From NCBI GenBank assembly GCA_000934665.2, contig KZ538071.1:1-64000 (forward strand): DNA of 64,000 nt, read 5' to 3'. Source of the stretch: Catajapyx aquilonaris (taxonomy: Eukaryota). The position numbers and the translations under genes were made by a program. The notes beneath the pieces are model-generated. The model did not search any database and had not been told where the DNA came from. It was given only the letters and a program-made list of their open reading frames with translations. Shown piece after piece: positions 41,870-61,900 of the stretch. Numbering within the stretch: the stretch's first letter is position 1; each line of letters begins with the position of its first letter.

Positions 41870-42724
41870 ATGGGTGCAATACTGACTACACGCCTGCGAA
41901 CACGCCTGACTGCACGCCTGACTACAGTCTGGACCGTTGTCTGGACCGTTGTCTGGACTTATTTTCAGAGTGAGTAACAACTAATTTCATGCTGCAAGGA
42001 TTTTGAGAAGGGAGGGAGGGAGGAGGAGGAGGAGGATATAAAAGCACAATCCAAGCTTGGTGTGTGTTCCATTCCTTGCCATGTTAAGCAGGGACAGAGT
42101 ATTCTCACTTGAATTACTCACCAAATTGAACATATGCATCTCTAAATAGCTGGGGGAAGAAATTAAATTTGTGTAATGGTGTGCAGCAGTGATTGTATGC
42201 CTGACTTGCGCTCATGCATGCAAGATTATTCTATCTAATTATTATTACTATTTATATTAGATGTCGGAAGGCAGTTCTGGTACTCTGAGAACAACGTATT
42301 CAGGAACTACCCCCAGATGTCATTGATACTGGAAATGCTGTTGTACATTGGCATATGGACCTCAGTAGTAGTGCTCGTCATGCTTGCCTCCCTCATGTTC
42401 GTGAAGTTCTTCTGGCTGCCTTATCCCTGGTTCAACATAGTCATTGAGACTTTGCTTGTAATCGCCTTCGACTTCCTCGAGATCAGCCGGTTGTACCTCG
42501 GAATAGTGGGGAACTTGGAAGGTCGGCTGCTCCCATCGGCCATCTCGATGGCACTGACACTTCCATCCCTTGTGGCAATCCTGTATTGGATGTTGTGGCA
42601 GACCTATGTACTGCAGATTGAAATTATGATGTTTGTAATCTTGATCTTTGTGCAAGGAACACAACTACTGTTTTCTGCCGTGTGCCTGTGCTTTTTGTAT
42701 ACTGACTTTATGATGACTAAATAG
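41870..42724 (+). CDS. TMEM216: TMEM216-like ciliary transition-zone membrane protein (Transmemb_17 family), 2 exons 41870-41969 and 42261-42724, ~187 aa
   Basis: Four hydrophobic helices with motifs LPYP, LEISRLYLG-x-x-GNL, ALTLPS and QTYVLQIE; ccaacATGG start; gtgagt donor and tattag acceptor in phase 1. Confidence 0.85.
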
Positions 42725-43667: not shown

Positions 43668-45206
43668 GGGTAGTACGGACCTCCCAACTCAGGAGGTAAT
43701 TCGGACCATTACTTTTCTTTTTAGGCCTGTGTACAATGTGTAGGCTACATAAAACCTTCTTGTGAATTTCCTGGGTCTGCAGGCAGGGTGACTGGGAGGG
43801 AGTGTGCAAGGTGCAAGTGCAATGTCTGTAACAGTGTATGCAAAAGTCGCATTGATTAGGTAAGAACGGGTAAGAACTACTTCTCAGGGCTTACTGTAGC
43901 GTGCAGTTCTACACAATTTGTGCAGTCAGAAAATAGCAGACAAGTCTGTTATATCCAGACTCAACTGCACTTGTACATTGGCACTGCTGGAAATATTCTA
44001 CTTGCTTATACCAAGAGCTAATAACTCTTGCTTATACCCGATGTGTTTACAGTATAGGAGGATTCCACTGTACTTTGTCAGTTATTACATTCACCTAATC
44101 TTATTGTGTGACCTTGAACCCCCAAGAAATTCCCGCCTGCGGCGGGCTTGTTGGCTGTAGGGGGGCTGCATGATATCTGGAATTACTTTCCAAGGGGTCC
44201 CGATGTGGCAAAGGTTGAGAACCATGCCATGCATGTCCAGGACACCCTACCTGTGCCGAAATCCCCCAATGGCACAGCTCAACCAATTATCAGCAGACAG
44301 ATTTGCAAGAATTGCCATAAATTGCTATGTGTCACCAACACTAGTTTAGATAATGAAGGCTTTCGATTCTAAGCTTAACAAGTCCCTCACAAGTGGATGA
44401 AAGCAACAATGATAGCCACTATTACTGACACTTCATGGTTTATGCTTTATCAGCAGTGTCAAAAAAATGGCCTTCAGTTGGGAGCAATATCTTAGGTGAT
44501 TACCTAGTGTGAAAACTGAAATACACTGCATTTTACTTATTCTTTTTAAACCAATTGGGTTGTGCACCTCAAATTCATCATCGTAGAAATGAAGAACTGT
44601 CGTAATAACATTCCCTTGCCCAGGTCCAGAACAAAATTAATGTCTTTCATACAAACTCCCATCTGCTCCCATCCCTACCTTTATGGTTTATGCGAAGCCC
44701 CAGAACCAAGCAATACCTCCTCTTGGACATCCTTTATGAGAACATAGTAAATCTTCCCATGCTGTTTCATCATGTTCCTCAGGTGCTATGAAATAGGTTA
44801 TCCAGACAGTACTTCTAAGGGTATGTCCTTCTCCTACTTGGCTTTATTATTTTTCCCAGTTTATGTGTGCATTATGAGAACACACATTCTCTGCATGTAT
44901 TAGTTGCAAGTAGCCTTTCATTATGGATGTATACTGATGCTTTTTCTTCTGGCAGCAAAAGTATCACCCATAGCATCAGCCAAGCGCTGAAGGTTTGATT
45001 GAGTAGGCAACATGGATTTCATCAGGGCAATCTGTATGTAGCAACAGAAAAGGGTGTTATATATATTATACAATAGAATTTGTGATATGCAGCAGTGTGT
45101 CCAAACCTATATGAGAATTTCAGGTATCAGAATTTTTCCATTGAGTTGGGATACACTGTTATATGATTTTATCATCATGGCAACTAAATTTAGTTCCATA
45201 TATATA

Positions 45207-45629
45207 CAGGGTGTATCTGAACTCAGTGCCCCGGCGTATATGACTGCCTTCCTAGCCACCAGAGGATCGATTTAAGTATAGGAGTCATATGTCTGGGCAG
45301 CCTCATTACTGAGATACACTCTTTAGCGATTTTTGCCTAATCGCTCCTTCTGACTGTTAAATAGAATTTTCTGGTGTAACTAGCCAAAAAGGCCTTACCA
45401 CCTGTGGGCAACAAACCAACAAAGTCCGGCCCCCAGACCTTCCAGAGCCTTCTGACTGGGGAGGGTTCGATGGGTAGCCTAACCGACAGGATATTTTGTA
45501 CTACATGTTTGCGGCCAATTATCTCCGTAATGCGGCGGCCAAACATAATGACTCCTATACTTAAATCGATCCTCTGGTGGCTAGGAAGGCAGTCATATAT
45601 GTCGGGGCACTGAGTTCAGATACACCCTG
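45207..45629. mobile_element. Tc1/mariner MITE in a (TA)n site
   Basis: cagggtgtatctgaactcagtgcccc ... ggggcactgagttcagatacaccctg; ~80-bp TIRs. Confidence 0.85.
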
Positions 45630-48049
45630 TATATATATACGAGTAGGTAATACAGAAAAATTAGCACGTGTTTAGTAATGTATATAAATTATTATAACAC
45701 CGTATACCATCAGGATAATGTTTACTTGAACCAACAAGCATGGTTTATGTTAATTAAATATGTGTATTTATATAGCCAAGCACCCAACTTGAAAACAGAC
45801 AAATTCCAAAATTAGTATATACAGTTTCCATACCTGTTCTTCCTGAGATGATGATTCCTTGTCATCAGGTTCATCGTCAATTTCTTCAGACTGTGTTGAT
45901 GTGCTTGTTGGTTTAGATTTCATGGTCCTTTTCTTGTTCTTCTTTTTTGATGGCGTCAGTTGCTCCCTCATCCTCTTAAGGCGCCATTCAATGAAGCCCT
46001 TTCCCGACTTTTTATCATAAAGATGCTCCTGCAAGTAAATTTTAAAAGAGAATGTACATACAACGAAGCATATATATATATACTGAAATAAACAAGACCA
46101 GCATATAAATATATTAATGGTGCACCATTTTCCTGTAGTAATTAAAGAAAATTGAGCACATAAACTTACATGGCCATGGATCCCTGGCCGAAGTTTCAGT
46201 CTAAGGGATGAAAACCTGTCTGTTAAGGCGATGGCCAGTGCCTCTTTTTCCAGCTCAGCTTTGGGATAACTGTAAATAGGTTTTCAAAAATTAATGAAAC
46301 TTGATTGCACAGGAGTGTCAAAAAGTATTGTATATACTTACTGATGGCCAATTCGACGCACCAAATACCCACAAGAAATTCTAACCAAAGTTTTCCTTTC
46401 CTTCGGACTTAAAATTCCACCTTCTCGTAATTTAGACAGAAGTCTACGCCCACTGGCTTCCTCTTTCAGGATATCTTCTACACAAATTTCCTAGCTAGAC
46501 ATTAAACATATTTATAAGACATTTTTGCTTTGAAAATGTAACTTCCACATGGTGCCCATAATCAGATTTAATGCAGACAAGCTGACTTGCTGGGGCATAT
46601 CCCCCCCAACAGGCACAGTGAAACTCATTTTCATTATAGTTTCTCTTGTTAGGCTAAATAAGGATTATTTAGTCACAAGTGTCATAATCGAGCTATTGAT
46701 GTTTTTGTGCAACGGAGTTGGCTTGCAACTTTCTTATCATCTCGTCTTTTTTCTTATCATAGAAGGTAACTCAATATTAATCCTGCTTGGTGCAACAATT
46801 TTCCATCCAGTGAATTAGTATACCAGACCTTAGGAGCAACAGAAGAGGTACTTGAAGTCTCCATCAGGCTACTGCCTTCCTCCAAACGCACCATTGATGA
46901 ATTCTACAGTTGGAAAAAAATCTCTTCAGGAGATATATGTTAATATAATACAGCACACTTACATGCATACACACTCACAATTGAAGCATCAGAAGCAGGT
47001 GAAGTTCTGCAGCAGTTGAACCACTTGCATTTTGTGAAGTTGTGTATGAATCAATGATGTCCTGAATGATTTATTTGTGGCCTATTTTCATATTCATGTC
47101 TTTCAAGTCTTGCTCATTCAATTTTACGAAGCCTGAACCATCAAGTTCTTCATCTGAAAATCATCAGAAATTTATCAGACCTGTTATTGCATCCTGACAC
47201 CCAACATGCTGTTCGCATCTGACATTTTCAGGCGACAAATACCGTTAGTATACGTACTTCAATTGCAAAAAAATAAATAAAATCAAAATCAAAATCAAGA
47301 AAAAAGAGAACGGCGGAACATTGCTTATCTGACATATTAACTTTACCGTGAACTACAACTTCCTTTTTATCAGATTTCACAATATTTAACTGTGGGGGGC
47401 TATACGGCGGACAAAAAGCATGTTTGCCGTCCTTTACTCCAAATCAACATGATGTCATGGTGTCAGATAAACGACACTGCTTACGTGACCGGCCCACTTC
47501 CTGGTACTGAAAGTTTACAAACATGTCCTTCTCGAGTTGGAGTTGTTCGACATAATTCGACATGCCCAAGGCGCTGATCGTGCCATTCTTAGGCGATGAT
47601 GAAAATTATTATGCGACACCGAAAAATCAATCCTGGAAGGCATACTTTCGTCAATGTGTCAGACATATTGAATCCGCCACCTTGAATATGTCCATTTTGC
47701 AAACAGATTTTAAATCTATGTCCTATAGAAAACCGCTTTACAAAATAAATCAAAATAATGATAAGTTGCTATTTTCCCCAGCCATTTTGCAATCCGACAC
47801 ACGGTACAAATGCCCAAAACATTTAGTGAACACATTTCACTCTGTGAGTAATGTCAGAAAAATTATATATCATTCTTTGGATAAAGGTACAGTATAACCT
47901 TCCCCCACTCTTCCATTTTGTTATTTTTTTTTCCAAAGTATATACATACCCATATTAAATAATGACATGTCTCATGCTGATGTACTTCTGGCCAGTATAA
48001 TCGATCCAGGTATCATAAGGATGTTGATCAGGCAGTGACCCAGGGGTTA

Positions 48050-50580
48050 TTAATGCAATCTGATCCATAAGGTTAGGCTGCGGTAGTGCGTGATATGCAT
48101 GATATGATATGTATTCAGGTTGTGAGTCTCCCATTTTTGGGTTACCAAATAAGTTGTAGTATCATTAACAGTGACAATTTCTCTGATTTCTTCGAAAATG
48201 GGGTAGCCTCTCTCTGTTTTGCTCTCTGACTTCGTACAAACAAAACATCCCACTCGATAATGTATGCCTTTGTAGCTAATTTCATTGCTCATGAACACAC
48301 CAGTGTCATTTTCAGCAAGGCCCTGCAAGACCAGTGCTTTGCATGCCTGTGATGCCTGCACTCTCGTACACTTACCGGATGAACTGACTATAGTTTTAGG
48401 TATCCCAGAATTCCATTTTTCACACTGATACATCTGATGCCGCCATGCCATAGTTTTAGCAATGTCACACCACTTATAACTTTTAAAAAACTGTGTTTGG
48501 CTTCGTATCGCATACACCAGCACATCCTCACCATTGGACCAAATTTGGCCATAAACTGTGGGTAATGCAATAAATGATGTTTGTTTATTGGACTCACCTC
48601 TGGAAATAACTTCTTGAAGAGAAGGTGATGTTCAATAATGAGTTCATTGACGTATGCCAATAAGCCGTGAGACACAGTTGGAGCCATTATAATTTCACTT
48701 ATTTGTAAGAGAAGGACAAGAAGTTCAATGTAGGAGTTGTGAGGCACTTTTTCTGCAAGTATGAATGGCAATACCCGTAGTAAACACCACGTCTGCATCG
48801 GTTTTTGTTTTAATGTATGATCACCTATGTTATTAAACATTGCCAAAGTGAAATTTGCTGAAGGCTTGTTCTTCCGCTCCACAAATCCATACTGAAAGGA
48901 ATGAATTCGGCCATTCAGATATGCAACATTCATCAAACGTTCTTGGCATACTACAAAGTTTAAGATTAGCTTCATTTCCATCGGCGCAACACCCTCAAAA
49001 AAGTCATGCATCCAGGGATGGAAAAAGAACCGCTTCTTTGGGCGGTAAGCGGTTCTTTTTCTATCCCTGCACATGGAAAAAAGAAGCGCTTCTTGGAAGG
49101 AAGCGGTACTTTTTCCATCCCTGCATGCATCACATCGAATGCACAGTTCTCAGTGCAATGAAAATACTTCAATTCATTAAGCACAGTTTTGCCTTGGACT
49201 CCAGTTTTAGTTTGATCTGCTCTGCTTCGTCCCGCAGATTGAACATGTTGTTCATGTAAATCTTTACTTCGTAATTGGATGTCGTTTTGCAGATCATGGC
49301 CATTCTGAAGCTGCGATCTTGTGATCATACATGAACGGCAGAATCTATTTGCTGACGGGGAGAGAAACCCACACATTGAGTGGGCAGCAAGACCATCTGC
49401 ACAGAGAACTGTAATGGCACCCTGCAACTTGCGTGGTTGGCCTTCAAAATCAACAATTACTCCTGATTCTGACTCTAATAATTTCAAGTCCTTCACAATA
49501 GGCGCCAAGATCTGATCAAAACCATATCGGTTAATATCCTCCACATGACAAATGGCCACTACATGTATGAATGACAGTGATGCATTTAAGTATGCTGGTA
49601 TATTTTGCACTGTCATGTACACCACCCCTAATTTGTGCACTTTTGTCTTTGATCCGACGGGATTAACAACTTCTAGATCATCATAATACAACTGCAGTTG
49701 CAAGGCATTGCAATTCACCGAAAATAATTCATATGTTGAACAATGATGAGAATCAAAATATGAACGAATTAGGCCATCCTGGCTTTTTCTTTCAGACATC
49801 ATGGCTTGCCGGATAAATTTGGAAGAAATCACCATTTTTAGAGTCTCAATTATTGGTATGTATTGAAAGGTGTCAGGAACAGCCTTGGGTAAATACTGAC
49901 CAGTAGCTGCGTCAAACCTTTGATCCAGCCTTTTTCCAAGCATAATTTCTCTTGGTTCAATAAGGGAAAAATTATCTCGAAAATATGCCCTCTGTTTTGC
50001 AATACTCCTCAGTTCGAGAAATGGGCTGGGGACATTAAACAATGCTTCAACATCTTTAATTTTTCCGGAACTTAAATCCGTTCCACGACTTAAACATGAC
50101 AATACTTTAATTTTCAATTTATCCTGAACGTCACTTATCAGAATCTCGAATCCATCAACAACATCACTTACTGCAGCGTGAGTCATAGACCCCCTTGACA
50201 TAAGCCTCAGAATCATTCTCGCTACACTATCTTCTAAATTTGGGACATTAACTTGCTCTACGTGTAAAAGAGATTCATCGCTATTGTCATCTTCATAATT
50301 CGTAGCTTCAACAGCCTGACACTGGTCAGAATTTTCGAGTGACACAATCCTATCACACAATGTTTCTTCATGATCGGTGTATGGGGTGTGGGGTGTGGCA
50401 CTTTGCTATATGTCTGCAATAGCTTCTAAACAAAGCGAATGACTGCATGCATCCATGTTGCCCACATATTAATTGCTGAGATGACCCCAAACAAAATGCA
50501 TGGATACTGCGGAAGTGCTTTTTCAAATCCTCAATACCTCCCTTAACTTTCCGATTGCACCTGAAGCAATTGTACGCCAT
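48050..50580 (-). pseudogene. CMC/EnSpm-type DDE transposase with N-terminal C2H2 zinc fingers, frameshifted
   Basis: CFRC..H..H and CGQHGC..H..H fingers; LQLYYDDLEVVNPVG, DGLAAHSMCGF, CRSC, DVMHDFFEGV, KHHLLHYP..GP, WCMRYEAKH motifs. Frameshifts near 50365 and 48500, plus a MITE insertion. Confidence 0.85.
49013..49123. mobile_element. 111-bp hAT-type MITE inserted in the transposase
   Basis: TIR cagggatggaaaaag / ctttttccatccctg; 8-bp TSD catgcatc (49005-49012, 49124-49131). Confidence 0.85.
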
Positions 50581-52585
50581 TCTGAGACTCAAAATAGGAA
50601 GGCAAGGATGGGATCAGATTGCATAATTTACGCTGCGTTCATCTCGCAAGCCTTTCAGAAAATAAAGACCATTATGTTATTGTTCAATGCCATATATTAT
50701 ACATAGACCGCCTCACTGCAACAATGCCACATTACTACGTATTAACGTAACTTACATTTGATCTTCTCTATTGCTTCCGCCGGCACCGCCTTTTCCTGCA
50801 GGTATGCAGGTAGCTCCTCTTTGGTTAGCGTGCGGAGGTCCTTTTCCATTGTTTCCATGTCGTCCGAAGACAACACCGGTTCAAACAACCCACCGTCACT
50901 CGGCACAGATTCAATACACTCGCGGGATCGATTAAATTAAACTGAGCAAAAGTCGAAACTCACAAAAGATTATATTAAGTTCAGTATATTACACTATGCT
51001 GATTATGCTAGTGAGGTTGGAGAAACAATGGTGCGTTGACCGTTGTGCTTTGCGTACGTGGGAGGTGTTGAGTCAGGATGGGGGAGGGAGGGGGGGAGAC
51101 GAGGGATGTCGTGTCTACAGGTGGGGAGGCCAATGATAAGGTACGGAGTTGGGCGCGGGGAAAACCCTGGAGTATGTGGCCGGGATCCTCCCCCTCGATC
51201 GGAGTGGCCGTGACCCTGGCTCGGATTGCGAGCTGTTTTCACCCGCATAAGAATCTGATATCACTCTCAACAAGCGTCTTGTTGGGAAAAACAGCTCTAA
51301 AAAAGTCACTAGGGCCACAGCTCTTTTTTCGAGTCGCATTTCCGCTCTTAAGAATTTAGAGAGTAGGCTATATTAAATTTATTTTTGGGCACTGGTAAAT
51401 TTTCAATGATTTTGTCAGTAGGATTGTTTGCAGCAGGAAAGCAGAGATTCCTAGGTAATGTGATGTACCTGAACATGCATTGTTAATATTGGTAAGACAA
51501 GTCTTTCAGTAGCTAATCTTTTTTAAATTACATCTATTGAGAATTCATTATCTGAGTTACAAGTGATATTATGGAAACCACTGCCTAATAATTACAGATG
51601 TAACAGTCCAGTCAGCTGGTAACAAGTTAAGAGCACTTCAATGACGACAAGGTAAATCAATAATTCCAGTGACACACATATGACACCTCTTCGTAGGGAG
51701 ATAGCCCGGCAGTATCTTACAAATGTTGCCTAGGGAGCAGAATATGAGCATGATGATCATCACTGCAAGCTCTACACTACAGACGAGACATGCCATCAAC
51801 TGCCAGAATTATCACTTCTAGGCACCATGTGGTAAGATCGCTTACCATGAACTGCTACACCTGATGAGCACTCAAAAATCCAATCCATGCAGTGGCACGA
51901 ATCTCTTCGTATGCCACAATTCGTGCGAGATGTTCTAAATATGCCTCTTTGGTCACTGAGGTCTCAAACACTAACTATTTACATGCCCCCCCCCCCCNNN
52001 NNNNNNNNNNNNNNNNNNNNNNCCCCCCCCCCACACACACACACACACACGAAATCGAGTGGAGTGAGGTCAGACGAATGAGGGCCCATTTAATCCCCCT
52101 GTCACCAATGATCCTCTGGAGGTGTATAGATTCTAGCAACTAACCAAAATGTGCTTGCATCTGTGCTATCACATTTTCTGTGTATCTCCAGCAGCTCCTG
52201 TAAGGTGTGCTCTAGAAACTCCTTGTACAATGGAGACTTCAGGCGAGGTGGTATAGACAGTACAGTATAGGCTAATTAACCTGGTCATCGCTCACCGTGT
52301 CGCCTACTATGCCAGTAGGCACACGCCATGGTCGAGGAGTGTGTGTACTGTACACACTCCAGTGGCAAGTTGCTCCTGGTGGCACTGATAGCAAGAATGA
52401 ATACCGGTATTATCAATCCAAGTAAAATGCATTTTGGCAGAAGCTGACTGTCAAATGCACCTAACACAGATAATGCCTAGTTGCATACACAGAAAATGGG
52501 TCATTATCAAGGAGAGGTTGAGTGCAAGGCATAAGGCCGAACTTGTGTGGATGGATGCAAACCTTCAAGGATATGCTATACTAAC

Positions 52586-53121
52586 AAGGGACCTTTCCTG
52601 GGGTGATATTAAATAACAGATTGGGATGAAACTGAATATGCTAATGAAGGGCAATATAATATGATAACCAAAAATTAAGTCATTTCGTGCTATGGCCCAT
52701 ATTTGCAAAAGTTCACTTTTTAATGAATGGTTTATACAGAAACAAATATTGCAATGTGCACAACAAAAGAAGCTCATCTCACTACCTGTAGCACACTTGT
52801 CACTCGCTAAGTTGTCCAAAAAACACTCTATTGGTGTGATGAATGGAGCATTTGATTATGGAAAGTATCCACAAGAGTAAAATCCATATTTGTTCATTTC
52901 ACGGAACATTGGCGGAGAACACAGAAAGTTGGTAAATGCTTGAATAATAATGAAGTTAACCCTGTTGGAAATGTACTATTTTTGGCTCTTTAACATGTCA
53001 TAACTTTTGAAAATATGGGCCATATCACGAAATAGCATAATTTTTGGTTATCATATATTGTCCTTTATTAGCATATTCAGTTTCATCCTAATCTGTTATT
53101 ATCACCCGGGAAAGGTCCCTT
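52586..53121. mobile_element. MITE with ~130-bp TIRs
   Basis: aagggacctttcctggggtgata ... tatcacccgggaaaggtccctt. Confidence 0.7.
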
Positions 53122-54759
53122 GTAAGTACAAAAAGCCCATTGCCATTAACTATATGTTGCGGATCACAAGCACACACATAATATAAACCTCTGGCTTGCA
53201 CCGGATCACCATTAAAGTTTGTTGGTGTCTTTCTGAAACTCCCTGTGTGTAAGTGAGTCACTTTGTTCAGCAAATCTTTGTGTGTTGCACAGGTTTAAGT
53301 TCCATGCATACTGAAAATTATTGGCCAGAACCCAGAACTAAACAAAAGTTCCGCAGTGGACAAGTTTCCCCTGCTTCCATGGTGCCTTAGAGACAGGTTT
53401 CACTGTATACTGGTACAATACAAACATGATGATGAGATCGACGAAGAGTAATTCACTGGCTGCACAACCCTGCTTCTAGGAAAAATTTGTGGAGAGGCTG
53501 AATATAGCAAAGCTATACAGCATACCATTTTTGTGGATATAGTGCCTTACTTCATGAGATTATGAGGAAGTGGGTCACTGACAATCTCCATGATATTCAC
53601 AAAGGGAGACTACACTGTCTTGAAGAAAATGGGTATGTGGACTAGTGTGCAATTTCCTGGCACCAAATATTGAAACATTGTTTTTCCAATGAGAGTGAAT
53701 ACAAATAGGTGCTTGAAAATTTTGGATGACTCAGAACTTCCAGAACTAATGTGGTACAGTATAAGGCATGTCTGGTAAAATTAAGAGAGTGAATGTATCT
53801 TCTCTGAAAACCATGACAATTTTGAAAGCATTGAAGCAAGCAGAGCACCATATTATATTTCTTATGGGATCACCTGAACGTCAAGGTGTCAACTAACAAA
53901 CGTGTGACAATATTGAATACCGGTATCTGATAGAGAACATCAGTTGTGAGATGGTAATAATTTCCTGTCAATTGGCTGTCATATACAGTATACAATTTCA
54001 ACTTAGCCATGCTGTAGTTTCCTACAATGCATGAATAGACTTGACTTCATTTTCTCTCTCAAATATGAGCAACTACAAGACCAGCAAAGTACTATTTGCT
54101 ACGTATATGGACTTAACGTTTTCATTTGTTATGTCTACAAGCTAGCCCACATTTTGTGTCAAACACATTATCCTTGGGTAGCAGCATCTGCATATAGTCC
54201 AATCCTGTAACATTTTCTACATTAATATAACTCTGGTGTTGCCTTCAACAATATACTGGAAGGTTGTGTGGCATATTAATCTGATACAAATAAGTAACAT
54301 ATGAAAACGCAATGATTTTATTTGCTTTGGAACAGCAAAGCAATCATTACAATAATGAATAATACACTGGAGGATGTCTGGCTCCTGCTCTCTGATTCAA
54401 CAGAACTAAAGCCCAAAACCCATTCAATTTCTTGAAAACTTAACAAAAATAAGAATAATAATAATATCTTAATTGCACGTATAAAAAGTGGATTCAAATA
54501 CGAGGCAGGGAAAAGTGGGGAGAGGGAGGGAGTATAATTTTTCATACACTAAAAACATCACAATGCAAAAAGTAGCACACAACTCACTCACTGACAAACT
54601 GAATATGATAAAAAAAGAACTACTCTTCAATTTGTCTCCTCAGCAGCACTGATCCCTTTGGCAGGAATGGTATAATAATTGGTGTGGTGGCCAAGAAGAG
54701 AGATAATAATTAATGGGTACTAATCATACATAAACTGGAGCACCTCTTGCTAATAAAAT

Positions 54760-55900: not shown

Positions 55901-57179
55901 TTACGGGGTGGTGCATTGTCAATGCTGGTCAGGCTGCACCCTGGAAATAAACAGTGTGTTACAAAACAATAATGCTTTGTTAATCAGCTTAGAATACAGA
56001 TTATATATCTCTGTACATTGCAAGACTTGACAGGCAACTGCAGTTAAACCATTCTGGTCACATATCCAAATACGTAGGTTTTTTATTCAAAAACGGTAAC
56101 ACATACACGTAAGTCAATTTGAATGACTGCAGCTAAGTTACTGTATATGGTATAGCATTGGCTGATTCAGATCATGTGACCAACATTTGCTGTGATTGCA
56201 TGTCAAGTAGCAATATTCAATTACGTAATGACCCAAAGGTCCCACAATATTATGAGACTTATGTTTGACGTTTATCATCCTTATTTTGATTTTTATGGTC
56301 ATCTTTCAGGCACTCTAGAAGGGTTCAGTATTTTTCGAGGAAAATGCTCTATTATCTTTACTAATTAAGATGCAAAAATATTTTGACTAGCAAACAAAAT
56401 ACCCTGGAGTTAACTCTTCTTTGCAACTGAAGTAATCCCTTCGAAATCAGATAAAATTACAAATGCCGACATACGGCAATTGCCTCAAAAATGGATCATT
56501 CTACAGGGTGTTCCATAGTGATTCAGAAAATCTTCCATGGTAAACTCCTGAGTACTTTATATAGCATAGATATGTCATTTGAAGACCTCGATGGTCGATG
56601 GAAGAACGATCAAGGTCCACTTCTTGTCAAAAATGACTTACATATCTCAGAAGATAGTTTCACTAGCAGAGAATATGATGGTTCGGTCGTGGTTGGGGAG
56701 TAATGATCATAGGTCACTATGGAAAGCCCCGAAAATGGGATTTACAATGGAAATTATGGGCCGTTGAAATTTAAAATGGCAATATCTCAGTTTCACATGA
56801 GATGGGCCTTGATGGTTTTTCTCCCGAGGCCTTCATTTTGTGTCCGCAGCCGCGTTACTGAAATAACGGGCTTCAACCACAAAGTGTATGCAACATCCTG
56901 GCAGGTATGCGTCCCTCCAAGCGTCTTTGGCTGTTTAATTTAAAATTTAGATGTTACCATGAAATGTTAACTCACTCTGCGATTTGGTTAGGTGTAGCAC
57001 GCAGTGGCCGAGGTGACGAATGTCTCAAACTGTATCCGCGACATAGACGATTGTATTAATATGGTACTTTTAGTAACCAGGCTACTGACAAGGGAACTTC
57101 ATAATACCAGTTGCTATTATACAGTAGTAGTAGGTATTTCGTCACTTGTACAGCTATGGAATAATCATTAATCACACAC

Positions 57180-58908
57180 CTGGTAAGGATCGTACGACCG
57201 CTGTTGAATGTGTCAAATGACGTCGGTGTCGAACCATTATTGGTGATGGTGCCCGAAGCCGCATCATGCAGACGGATAGGAGTCGCCAGGGGAGTTGACG
57301 ATGGAGGGGAAGGGGATGATGATGAAGGAGGCGATGTTGATGACGGTGATGTCCCAGACGGCAGTGACGGCGACGATGAGAGCCCGTCAAGGCACAGGCA
57401 GCTGCAGGTGCCGTACTGAAACGACGAGCTGTTGGCGGTGACAGCGCTCACCGTCGGAGCGGAGGAAGCAACGGTTGGTGAGGATGTAGAAGAAGATGGC
57501 GTGGCAGTGCCACCCACGACGCCCAAGGCAGGTCCACGTCCGCAGGGGCATCTAGTCGGTGACTGCGGCGGAGTCCACGGCGCCGACGTTGGGTCATCCG
57601 GACGCCAAACGCGCAAAGGACTTCCAGTCGGAACGCACTGTTGCTCATCGTCTGCCCCAGAAAGTGGCTGCAATGTCATCGGATGATGCAAATATGAGAT
57701 GTGGTGGTGTGTCTGCCCCGGGGCGAAATGGTGCGGTTCGAACACGAACGCTGGAGGGGCCATTGAGGACGACGACGATGTCCCGGATGGCGTGGATGCC
57801 TGCGATGGCGGTGTGACAAACGGGGACAACTCCGGAAGAAGTATGTCCGGCACCCGCTGATTGGCTTCATTCGTCACTCCGCCTCCGTACGTCGACGTCA
57901 CTCCCATTCCGACACCAGGCATGCCTAATCCAAGCCCACCCGACGATCCAGTCATCCCAGTCCAATGAGGACTTGCAGGGGAGAGTCGCTCCTCCTCCTC
58001 TTCGACCCCCTTGCAACGCAGACGCGGAAGTCGAAACGACGACCTGGACGCCACTATCCTCAATCCACCGACTCCGCCCCTCGATCGGTCCACACTGCCG
58101 TCGACGTCGACAACCCCATCAGGCGACTCTGCCCCGTTCCTTCTTCCTCCTGGAGAAGAATCATCTCCCCCTCCGGATCGTCCTGACGCTTCTCCTTCTC
58201 CGCCTACTTCCTCCTCTGATGCCCATGACGGACTTCCGTTGGTACCTGCACCGACAACGACCCCAACCCTGGTGGCTCTCCTGATAAATATGTTGGATGG
58301 CGCATTTGGTTCCGCCCTATTCGGCGACGATGTCCGTGGCGACGCTTCGTGTTCCGGCGTCGGCGGCCTCCGCAACTCTTCCTCCCAACATTCCGGGCTT
58401 CCCTATAACGACAATGTAACATTTAGTGGGTGCTGATTTTTAAAAAAAGGAATGGACTTACCGGGTTGTGTTGGTATGACCCGGTACCATGGGTGGAGTA
58501 ATCGACGGGTTCCTGCGTCGAAGAGAGTCGTGGTGGCGTCAAATGGTGGTGATGGTGGTGGTGGTGGTGGTGCGGGTAGGGAGAGGGTGGGAAGGAATAG
58601 TGTGGGTGTGGAGGTGGTGGGGGAGGGGGTGGCGGTGGCGGTGGAGCAGGAGGGTGGTGGTGCGACGATGCTCCATTCAACGACGGTGGTCCCTGCGGCA
58701 AGAAGGCCGCGGCTGCTGCAGCAGCTGCAGCAGCTGCCGCCGCGGCCTCGGGTCCGCCCGGGGGCGGGCCAGGGTAGGCCATCAGCGGAGGGTAGTATGA
58801 AGCGGCGGCCATCCTAGAAGCAGCTTGGGCCTGAGCATCATAGGCCAGACCATATTGCAACTTGCTCTGAACCATGTAGTAATGGTACAGCCACGAGTTG
58901 GCCCGCAT
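57180..58908 (-). CDS. Unidentified low-complexity (Pro/His/Ala/Ser/Gly-rich) protein, likely regulatory; exons 58908-58462 and 58402-~57180 (ORF stays open to 57056)
   Basis: Two GC-rich long ORFs joined in phase 0 by a 59-nt gtaagt...ttatag intron; poly-Ala, poly-Pro and poly-His tracts; no recognised domain. Confidence 0.65.
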
Positions 58909-61900
58909 CACCGATGCCTCACGCTCCCTAGAAATATTATACCTCGTTATTCTCTTTCAAAATACGCTGGTCGTAGTAACCTTGCTATTACAGTAGGCCT
59001 ACTTTTAAAAACAAGATCTTCGTATATCCTTGAGAGCATGCAACCCATATGACAGCCGTCTGGCCGTGAGAGCGAAATGATCTGACAGAACGTATGGCAA
59101 GCTCCTGTCCTTCGAAACTGAGACAAATGTGGACGTATGACGGCCATGGCATGCTTTTCCAGGCTAAAATGCACCCTGTCCTGTTCTCCGCTATGGGCGA
59201 GATAACCAACGCATGTGAAAATATGCGCTGTTCATAACAACAGGTTTCGCATTTACAATGACGCGCTGCATGTCTTCAGCTACACCAACGGCAAGGAATT
59301 TTCATTTGGTGATGTCCAGATGCTGCTCAATAAAAAATTGAATATTTGCTTCAAACTAATGTTTGATGTTTGTGGTGCCAGCTGTAACCGCGAGACCACC
59401 AAAGATGCAATGTGCAAAGTATTACGCAGATTACAACGACACACCTTATCAATAAACTAGAATCAAACTGTTGAGCCACAACTGTTACTGTTTTCATAAC
59501 GTTCCTACCTACCACACCTCCTGTCCCATGGTACCTAAATCGTACTATTCCGAGGGCAATGGAAGTAGTTCCCCAATACGTTTTCATTAGACTTCCACAT
59601 TGACATTTACAACCGCCGCCGAAATCCGAGGGTCAGCAGTCCATTTATCAGCCCGTAAGGTTAATGGTCGATTAAGCGGCGCGCGAGCTGCTTAATTAAT
59701 GCTCTTGTCGGCGGTGAAATACTCTCCGGACTCACGCCTTCTGTCCCGAGATCCAAGCTGCTGCGCTCTTAATGAGAATTTATCCGCACGCGGCTCTAAA
59801 TCCGGTCGTAAAACCCACTGGCTGCGACCGATTGATTCTGACTCCCCCCTCCCCCCCACCCACCCCCCAAAAAAAACCTTCCGTTCTCAAGCCTTATCAC
59901 ACCTCATTGTTCCCAAAAAACTACAGGCAACCTCACTTCCGCCTCAGATTTTTATCCCAAAAATATTTTCTGCAGGTAACCCCCACTGTGGCCCAGGAAG
60001 GGTGGGTTGGTGCTCCACAAGAAATGGAGCGGCACCCTGCTGTACCGCTCGCTCCGTGACAGATGAGCTGCGCGAGGCCCGATCCTATCTACACTCGCCA
60101 CCCGCCGAACCAAGCCCTCCTAGCCCTTCATCGCATCCCATCGTCATAACCTGCCCCTTTTGTCTCCGACGCTTTATTTGCATAGAAAGACCATCCAGTG
60201 ACCGCCTCTTGTACCACACCGGGTGGGCTAGGGTTGTCTAGGGTTGTCTAGGGGCGCAGCTCCCAAATGGAATGGTTACCCCCCCTCTAGAAAAGAAGTA
60301 CGTGTCGTGTAGAAATTGGCGAAAGGGGTAGTTGAGGAAAAGCGTGTAAAACAATTTTCCGGACAGACCTAGAGTTGGTGGGAACGTCGTCTTTTGCGGC
60401 GAGGAGGACCAAAAAATGGGGCCATAATTCGCGGGGGGTGTGTGAGATATGAATTACTTTGCTCGGCGGAGGTAGAAAGGGCGGAGCGTGACGCATAATT
60501 GCGGCAGAAATGACACGGGCCCGGGGAAGCCATTCCTCATCGGCTGGCCTGGTTGCTTGGCATGCTGCTAGCATAATATAGTGTATGTAGCGGTGTATAG
60601 TATAGAAGATCAGTCCGTGGGAAGTTGCGGCTCTGTGGGGACCCTTGTGAACTCTTTTGCTCACAATTTTTTTGATGAACATGCCGATGCTGTAGGATCA
60701 TATGGGAGATCAATCCAGCTGTCAAGATGGGAGATCCTAGGCATTCCTCTTTCGGGATGCATAAAATAGCGACCGTGCCAGCATCAATGTGTGCATGCGG
60801 TTTGAATGACGGCTTAGAATTTGAACAGCACAAATATCGAATGTAACGGGTTTTCTTCTGAGAAACTATCCTGGAAGTTAGGGAGGGTTGAAACCAGGTG
60901 CGTGTGCGGGTAAGAGGGTATAATGTGATTACAGGAATTCTGCGGTCATATGTAGAGGTTACATTCCCGAAAATCTGGAAACAGGTGTGTTACATGTTGG
61001 AAGTAATTCTCGGAGTTGCTGAAAATATAGTGAGATTCTTGGGCATATTCTAAGATCAATATGGCATGCGGCAGCACTTAAGTGTTGATTCTATTGTTAT
61101 TGGCAATGTGGAGAGTATCCTGTATAATTATCACAACATACCTATCACGGCACAGATAGTATTTTAAAATGGGCCAATCAGTTAATGTATACCTGAAGGA
61201 AATCCAGGAGTTACTAGACGTCCTGCACAGTCTCGTAATGTTTTATTGTACATATTAAGACATTGTCTGAAATGTCTAATTTAGGTCCTACTGTATGTTT
61301 ATTAACGTTATAATGCAGGTATATGGGCACTTATAAATTAGAACATAACATTTCCTGTCCCCCTGAGAAGTAACCGCCATGTTGAGAGCTTACTCCATGT
61401 TCTCTGAATATGATATCCGAGAAATGGAACCTAAACTGAAGGGTCGTCCTGAGAAGGAATTACATGTATGATACTATCTGTCAGGACAAAAGTTTCAACC
61501 AAATGTGTATCCTGGCGCGATACAACCATCAACATTCATGTGTCTCTCTCCTCTTCGCATAGACGTTACCTTGGACGTTATACCTTGGGAAAATGCTGGC
61601 ACATATACAATACGTATCGCGCACTGATAGCCCACTTCTGGGAAAATAATTTATTTTGGCAGATACTACACCATCCGAGGGGAGGATGTGTCGATGAAGA
61701 GGATGTGCAGCAATTTAATATTTTTTCGAAATGTCGCAACTACATCTTGCGCCTTCGAAGGATATTTTTCTACTTACTCGTATCAATAACAAGTCACGGG
61801 GCTTCTTTCTTACAGTACAAAATAACACTAAAGGTCCAGAAATGGAACTCACGTGAGCACTTGGTTAGTACAGACGATGACCGGCTGCTGGCTGTTCTCC

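Follow-up and report, generated by a model that had tools for sequence, protein, structure and literature searches.

A probable relic of a two-gene CMC-type transposon in Catajapyx aquilonaris, with its transposase gene lying in intron 1 of a SAM-domain helper gene

The locus discussed here raises the question of whether a transposase gene lying inside the first intron of another gene arrived there by accident or makes up, together with the surrounding gene, a single mobile element. It is located in a stretch of 64,000 nucleotides of Catajapyx aquilonaris DNA (NCBI GenBank assembly GCA_000934665.2, contig KZ538071.1, positions 1 to 64,000 of the forward strand), which is called the window hereafter, and its features, that is, a gene for a helper protein with a SAM (sterile alpha motif) domain, a transposase relic within that gene and a second transposase relic, are all encoded on the minus strand. 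In plants, CACTA systems of two proteins have received much study, and to our knowledge just one such case, SmTRC1, has been described in animals. An earlier note on this DNA, made from the letters alone, had proposed a two-gene element resembling maize En/Spm, with the transposase nested in intron 1 of the helper gene. The locus is probably the dead relic of a CMC-type DNA transposon (CACTA/Mirage/Chapaev, tnp2-type) with two genes, in which the SAM-domain helper gene holds a co-oriented transposase gene in its intron 1, a layout that would have been inherited from an ancestor common to elements of other animals.

Anatomy of the nested locus

Exon 1 of the helper gene (50756..50858, minus strand) starts with an ATG at 50858 and contains 34 codons and one further nucleotide (103 nt, phase 1) followed by a GTAAGT donor, and it encodes the N-terminal part of the SAM domain. 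The C-terminal part is encoded by exon 2 (46979..47153, minus strand), which lies after a ttttcag acceptor and before GTGAGT, and which has an in-frame TAA inside it at 47073-47071. Reading of the splice sites and translation confirmed the coordinates proposed for the two exons in the earlier note (50858-50756 and 47153-46979). Between them extends intron 1 (47154..50755, minus strand), 3602 nt long, which holds the whole transposase coding region, and the nested exon anatomy is as had been described.

The two exons together had been claimed to encode one continuous SAM-like domain. Neither exon 1 nor exon 2 singly gives a Pfam SAM match, because each is too short, and exon 2 alone, with its stop read as X, finds SAM domains as its top three matches in a PDB sequence search at E values of about 0.4. 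When the exons are joined by their coordinates in a script, the peptide aligns without gaps, across the junction, to residues 23-77 of P0040, an ant protein of 561 aa (35% identity over 55 aa, E 1e-8 in a set of 10 sequences). The N-terminus of P0040 matches SAM_1 with 31.1 bits (E 3e-7, cut-off 23) and SAM_2 with 21.6 bits (cut-off 20.5). In addition, residues 11-88 of the P0040 model resemble the SAM domain of L3MBTL3 (8y76) with a Foldseek probability of 1.00, a template modelling (TM) score of 0.77 and a root-mean-square deviation of 2.1 over 66 columns, and the model is similar to solved SAM domains in VIA (Z 8.6-7, 60-75 aligned residues). A five-helix SAM fold is thus predicted for the homologue, as tested on the P0040 model rather than on the window peptide. 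The SAM reading of exons 1 and 2 is supported, though indirectly, through the junction-spanning alignment to the Pfam-significant region of P0040.

The helper gene continues downstream of exon 2, all on the minus strand, with an exon at 46342..46490, whose splice sites were read in the DNA and which covers positions 101-134 of the family profile (hidden Markov model (HMM) match at 46445-46344, E 4e-4; tblastn match of the helper open reading frame (ORF) of the metagenome locus L005 at 46490-46344, E 0.017), an exon at 46170..46269 with the motif YP...LA.A...F..L, which aligns with P0028 and P0033, and an exon at 45834..46028 with the conserved block EH(F/L)YD...GFIE.RL...PSKKK (family HMM, E 4.5e-11). 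Seven short relatives were retrieved in a representative search with the ORF that spans exons five and six (best E 3.5e-9), and their alignment led to the wasp protein P0035 and later to ant, wasp and fish proteins. The last recognisable exon, the seventh (44924..45031, then stops), matches profile positions 229-263 (E 0.0018). Positions 101-134, 166-222 and 229-263 of the helper profile are thus found in the window, and the family HMM gives no match there to positions 264-497, so the C-terminal half of the gene is gone. The span of 45834..50858 given in the earlier note therefore keeps its 5' start and loses its 3' limit, since the helper gene runs past 45834 to the exon at 45031-44924 and then breaks off.

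The transposase relic, tnp2-like and probably of CMC type (47955..50580, minus strand), starts with an ATG at 50580, 175 nt past the end of exon 1, and ends with a TAA at 47957-47955. It has a C2H2-like zinc finger at its N-terminus (50580-50392) and frameshifts near 50390, 48490 and 48110. Homologues cover it by tblastn from 50583 to 48068 with changing frames, and the likeness to the C-termini of relatives continues in a third frame up to the TAA, so that the end at 48050 given in the earlier note is an artefact of the last frameshift. Of the whole co-oriented transposase ORF that had been placed at 50580-48050 in the intron, the orientation, the ATG and the location stand, and the integrity is disproved by the three frameshifts and by an inserted miniature inverted-repeat transposable element (MITE), while the end shifts to 47955. 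The closest of its 27 database homologues, whose sources include ants, a parasitoid wasp, a fish, a soft coral and Hydra, shares 39% identity with it. In the window copy both the helper gene and the transposase gene have decayed to pseudogenes, so that nothing at the locus works any more.

Helper and transposase in metagenome loci

The closest counterpart of the nested arrangement is found in another organism, on the metagenome contigs L004 and L005, which overlap over 1667 nt at 99.76% identity. Exon 1 of L004 (516-624, 109 nt) contains 36 codons and one nucleotide and is thus also of phase 1, and the transposase ATG is at 717, 92 nt past the end of exon 1. The transposase ORF of L004/L005 has a single break and its stop at L005:2435, and exon 2 starts at L005:2551. 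This exon 2 alone passes the SAM_1 cut-off with 34.2 bits and covers only positions 26-64 of the 64 of the profile, so the front of the SAM domain must be encoded elsewhere and is supplied by an upstream exon. Joined, the exons give an open frame of 289 aa, which can be aligned with P0040 from residue 19 onwards (E 1e-10 in a one-sequence comparison). In a three-way alignment, the position of intron 1 within the SAM domain and its phase are identical in the window and in L004/L005. Both thus have the transposase encoded within an intron of an accessory gene of the same orientation, and because gene order, intron position and intron phase are shared with a different organism, the nested layout is most probably inherited and not a chance insertion. 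Furthermore, 13 of the 16 TCGAA/TTCGA motifs of L004 cluster at 120-278, within 160 nt upstream of exon 1, and since this cluster resembles a subterminal array, exon 1 would lie inside the element.

Linkage of the two genes was surveyed in 29 metagenome loci that encode transposase relatives, in which the helper was sought with the exon peptides, the family proteins, the family profile and the helper ORFs of the loci themselves. Helper pieces occur on the transposase strand in 15 of them (L001, L003, L004, L005, L006, L008, L009, L010, L012, L013, L014, L016, L019, L022 and L025); they include three pairs that overlap or are nearly identical (L004/L005, L013/L016 and L022/L025). Besides the nested order there are two others, and in all three the genes are co-oriented. 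In L001, L003, L008, L012 and L019 the helper comes first, and its stop is followed by the transposase ATG after 7 nt in L001 and 6 nt in L003, as read in the DNA, and after about 30 nt in L019 and about 40 nt in L012, as reckoned from ORF translations. In L006, L009, L010, L013, L014 and L016 the helper comes last, that is, an open transposase ORF of about 870 aa is followed after about 200 nt by a helper with its own ATG; L006 and L009 are 79-84% identical in DNA across the transposase and helper parts, a likeness that fits copies of one repeat family, as judged from their sequences. In L022/L025, ant-like DNA that is grouped with the nested order, a transposase relic is followed by a SAM exon 2 with 82% identity to P0040; no exon 1 was found in these two loci.

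These gene orders follow the phylogeny of the transposase. In a maximum-likelihood tree of the DDE core, the window groups with L004/L005 and an ant protein (support 95/96), the loci with the helper last form a clade of their own (100/99), and those with the helper first fall into two further groups; L012, L020, L022, L023, L025, L026, L027 and L029, which had no match of 150 residues or more, were left out of this tree. The nested layout is for this reason most simply regarded as an inherited trait of one clade, whose transposases are now only about one-third identical.

An apparently complete element was found in one of the loci with the helper first. It occupies 7.8 kb (L003:699-8530), and both helper and transposase lie between inverted ends of 26 nt at 699 and 8530, which are of the CACTC... 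type (CACTCTTAGAA...) and match at 25 of 26 positions. Inside both ends there are subterminal arrays of ATGTGTTAAA / TTTAACACAT motifs, and TG stands on each side of the element, which fits a 2-bp duplication as weak evidence. This element has a short first exon with an ATG at 960 and a GTAAGT donor at 999, and its transposase has frame breaks. The search that found these inverted ends detected none in L006, L009, L012, L014 and L019. Consequently, the proposal of an En/Spm-like two-gene element with the transposase in intron 1 has gained support from the L004/L005 layout, from the well-supported transposase clade, from the same-strand linkage in 15 of the 29 loci and from the L003 ends.

As for the helper protein itself, the later exons appear, from the sequences compared, to encode a conserved core of about 400 aa without a known fold, which is marked by the EHFYD block. 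Models of this core have pLDDT (predicted local distance difference test) values of 68-71, and no solved fold matches them convincingly, the best VIA Z being 5.7 and the best Foldseek probability 0.23; the weak VIA rows include the helical DNA-binding folds of DnaA domain IV, BEN, E2F/DP and the homeodomain, all below the noise level of the tool and thus a lead only. Pfam families other than SAM were not found at E <= 0.1 in P0035-P0044 or in the helper ORFs of the loci. The family DUF4769, present in feature look-alike clusters of the helper, was rejected because no family member has a Pfam match to it. Where the helper comes last (L006:3416-3913 and L009:4060-4581), its N-terminal domain is a different one (MDQFVAS...) without a Pfam match, and the N-terminus of fish-type helpers is likewise not a SAM domain, so that the N-terminal domain seems, on this comparison, to be exchangeable within the family.

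Objections and rival explanations

Several observations weigh against the reading of the locus as an inherited two-gene CMC element. The inverted matches in the window are of 9-12 nt and chance-sized, a CACTAG at 51013 has no inverted mate in the window, and neither a target duplication nor subterminal repeats nor enriched 7- or 8-mers upstream of exon 1 were found there; since this copy is truncated, the absence of CACT-type ends does not exclude the CMC family. The search for the 5' end is limited by a gap in the assembly (25 N at 51998-52022), which lies about 1.1 kb upstream of exon 1. The window transposase piece scores 15 bits against Pfam Transposase_21 (E 0.015), under the cut-off of 28.6, and three of the 19 aligned relatives match this family at E <= 0.01 (best 4.7e-6). 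It is the sole Pfam family that recurs among the 19; the intact transposase ORF of L006 (871 aa) reaches 24.7 bits, P0011 and L006 have weak DUF4218 matches, and P0013 bears a precomputed PF02992. From these sub-threshold scores, together with the support from the L003 ends, the window transposase is likely to be of CMC type. In 14 of the 29 loci no helper was found on the transposase strand; nine of these are contigs of 3.4 kb or less, and L011, L015, L017, L028 and L029 are longer, of which L015 has a weak helper match on the opposite strand and L029 a weak exon-1-like stretch with stops (1738-1824). Moreover, exons 1 and 2 of the L004/L005 example are on two different contigs, and a second transposase relic in the window leaves room for a composite origin of the locus.

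Further objections concern the expression of the two genes and the function of the helper. The earlier note had named an acceptor (cag|aATG) that would join exon 1 to the transposase, and the string ccttcctattttgagtctcag does directly precede the ATG at 50580. After splicing to it, the final T of exon 1 and the following AA make a TAA stop, which overlaps the ATG (TAATG), so that the window copy gives no fusion protein by this route and that part of the proposal fails. In L004 an AG at 698-699 would bring exon 1 into frame with the transposase, in disagreement with the window copy, and on sequence grounds neither of the two acceptors would seem to show use. DNA binding by the helper is a guess, because the structural matches of the core are unconvincing.

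The rival explanations differ in how the transposase and the helper came together. The locus may be composite, that is, the helper and the second transposase fragment downstream of it would be one element with the helper first, and intron 1 would have acquired the upstream transposase at a later time from a related element, through recombination or nested insertion. That fragment (44253..44663, minus strand), which is tnp2-like and more decayed, with stops in its DDE core, is matched by P0013, P0018, P0020, P0022, P0025, P0026 and the L006 transposase in tblastn and lies directly after the truncated helper gene on the same strand, the order of helper and then transposase is known from L001, L003, L012 and L019, and transposons often nest in each other. 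Against this stand L004/L005, in which the same nested order, intron position and phase recur with a sister transposase and a short distance between exon 1 and the ATG (92 versus 175 nt). In addition, an inserted full element would have brought its own helper, and there is none between 50755 and 50581; nor does any inverted repeat bracket the transposase inside the intron, as no repeat of at least 9 nt pairs the 5' part of intron 1 with its 3' part, and the terminal inverted repeats of its own that would have made the transposase segment an independent element were accordingly not found. A composite origin is considered unlikely for these reasons. Far less probable still, and largely refuted, is the chance arrival of a single-gene transposon in intron 1 of a host SAM-domain gene unrelated to it. 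Transposons commonly land in introns, no inverted ends surround both genes in the window, and in ants, wasps and fishes the helper homologues carry the annotation of ordinary "uncharacterized" host genes; yet a helper on the same strand accompanies this transposase clade in 15 of the 29 loci, the three gene orders track the transposase tree, and in L003 one pair of inverted ends encloses both genes.

It can also be asked whether the two genes are a domesticated host gene cluster, that is, a helper with a co-opted transposase, instead of a mobile element. In favour of such a cluster are the conservation of the gene pair across phyla and the contig depth, which was summed over DNA contigs from the runs of one sample placed at 80% likeness: over 45874-48543 and 49612-51213 it is about 27-42 in X1, the level of the unique flanks, with a single bin of 63 (47476-48009). 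The contigs of the locus match it without differences, no second copy appeared in a self-comparison of the window, and sibling copies at 80% likeness or more were not seen among the contigs of the one sample, a weak negative since contigs drop variants. Both window genes, however, are pseudogenes, and L003, L008 and L022 among the related loci are decayed as well; moreover, L003 has inverted ends and subterminal repeats, and several diverged copies of one family are present among the metagenome loci. A domesticated cluster is thus very improbable, and the preferred reading remains the relic of a two-gene transposon whose nested layout was inherited.

Possible mechanism, known systems and neighbouring repeats

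If the locus was such a transposon, a single transcription unit with alternative processing would be the simplest reading of its expression. The transposase start is near the helper coding region both in nested loci (92-175 nt past exon 1) and where the helper comes first (6 to about 40 nt past its stop). One promoter upstream of exon 1 would give a primary transcript, removal of intron 1 would yield the helper mRNA, and retention of intron 1 or use of another acceptor would yield the transposase. Unspliced, the exon-1 frame stops six codons into intron 1, and since it also stops when spliced to the acceptor before the window ATG, exon 1 would act in the transposase transcript as a short upstream ORF. 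The helper would bind the subterminal repeats, and contacts between SAM domains would bring the ends together for the transposase, a role equal to that of TnpA in maize En/Spm. A shared promoter, alternative processing, DNA binding and bridging of the ends by the helper are suggested here by analogy with that system. In two elements whose transposases share only about one-third identity, the transposase ATG is preceded at 6-17 nt by a pyrimidine-rich motif, CCTTCCTATTT in the window (50581-50610) and CCTTTCCCTATTT in L004 (700-716); with two sequences only, this motif may be either an acceptor tract for splicing or an element of the start site.

Among known transposons, PIF/Harbinger elements also have two genes, which encode the transposase and a Myb-like DNA-binding partner and are separate, not nested. 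The present element resembles them as an animal cut-and-paste element with a second, non-catalytic gene, and differs in its superfamily and in its partner protein. The first exon of maize En/Spm is an untranslated leader, whereas exon 1 here is coding and contains 34-36 codons of the SAM domain. In other respects the likeness to En/Spm is closer: both have a co-oriented unit with the transposase frames inside an intron of the accessory gene, and among the relatives, subterminal repeat arrays occur in L003 and L004 and a CACT-type end in L003, as in CACTA elements of the En/Spm type. In maize two products are made from one transcription unit by alternative splicing, the transposase reading frames lying in an intron of the accessory gene (PMC1636069, citing Masson et al. 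1989). Unlike in maize, the host is an animal and the helper combines a SAM domain with an uncharacterised core; P0035-P0044 and the helper ORFs match no Pfam family of the TnpA type at E <= 0.1, the likeness to TnpA having been judged by Pfam families alone.

SmTRC1 of Schistosoma mansoni has been described as a CACTA-like animal element with a Transposase_21 domain, and alternatively spliced short transcripts of it that lack this domain encode other proteins, which were proposed to be TnpA analogues (DeMarco et al. 2006, PMC1636069). These proteins, PrA and PrB, are reported in that paper to resemble nothing else, and the helper described here differs from them, going by that description, in that its family is conserved across animals, among them insects and fishes. 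A paper on zebrafish EnSpm elements (PMC3485254) covers non-autonomous elements only. No link of a SAM-domain or SAMD3-like protein to CACTA/EnSpm elements was found in the literature searched, and Repbase or Dfam may already catalogue the family. The SAM-less core of P0040 (residues 148-561) has among its feature look-alikes a chordate cluster automatically named "sterile alpha motif domain-containing protein 3-like", with a score of 0.85 (below 0.9) and 200 of 256 features shared, which is a lead only since it rests on features rather than on alignment.

As a wider and quite tentative proposal, animal CMC transposons from insects to fishes might keep beside their transposase, in three gene orders, a conserved and unnamed TnpA-like partner with an EHFYD core of about 400 aa and an exchangeable N-terminal oligomerisation domain, which is SAM in the clade of the window; in this clade the genes would be nested as in maize En/Spm, with both products from one transcription unit, and the "uncharacterized" or "SAMD3-like" genes of fishes and insects, possibly also vertebrate SAMD3, would be copies or domesticated descendants. 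The helper family, being linked to one transposase clade across distant animals, is a concrete candidate for an animal counterpart of TnpA, and its oligomerising SAM domain suggests a way of pairing the element ends. Many "uncharacterized" genes of ants, wasps and fishes would then have to be re-labelled as transposon genes. Furthermore, the three natural gene orders offer material for studying how one transcription unit serves two proteins. The window copy itself is only a fossil, and its value is in the family that it indicates.

Several other repeats are inserted in or near this fossil. The MITE in the transposase, a hairpin of about 111 nt with arms CAGGGATGGAAAAAG... (49013..49123, or 49005..49131 with the duplications; strand not given), interrupts the conserved D.MHD motif and is flanked by an 8-nt target duplication, GATGCATG, at 49131-49124 and 49012-49005. 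Duplications of 8 nt are typical of hAT-type elements. Its summed contig depth is about 2300-2600 in comparison with about 28 nearby, which indicates a high copy number, and a contig of exactly 111 nt corresponds to 49013-49123 and is present also in a second sample (X5). An inverted-repeat element with arms of 119 nt that are 91% complementary lies at 45198-45638 in the helper intron between 45834 and 45031 and has by far the highest depth of the stretch, about 33,000-65,000 in X1. The second transposase relic adjoins a further high-copy repeat (43738-44271, with a summed depth of about 8,900 in X1), which has probably cut it off. Upstream of the locus there is another inverted-repeat element of raised depth at 52579-53128, with arms at 52612-52713 and 53002-53100. 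Farther away, the window contains a hydrophobic open frame of 161 aa on the plus strand (42239-42724) and, on the minus strand (57056-58956), long open frames rich in Pro, Ser, Gly and His that look like host exons.

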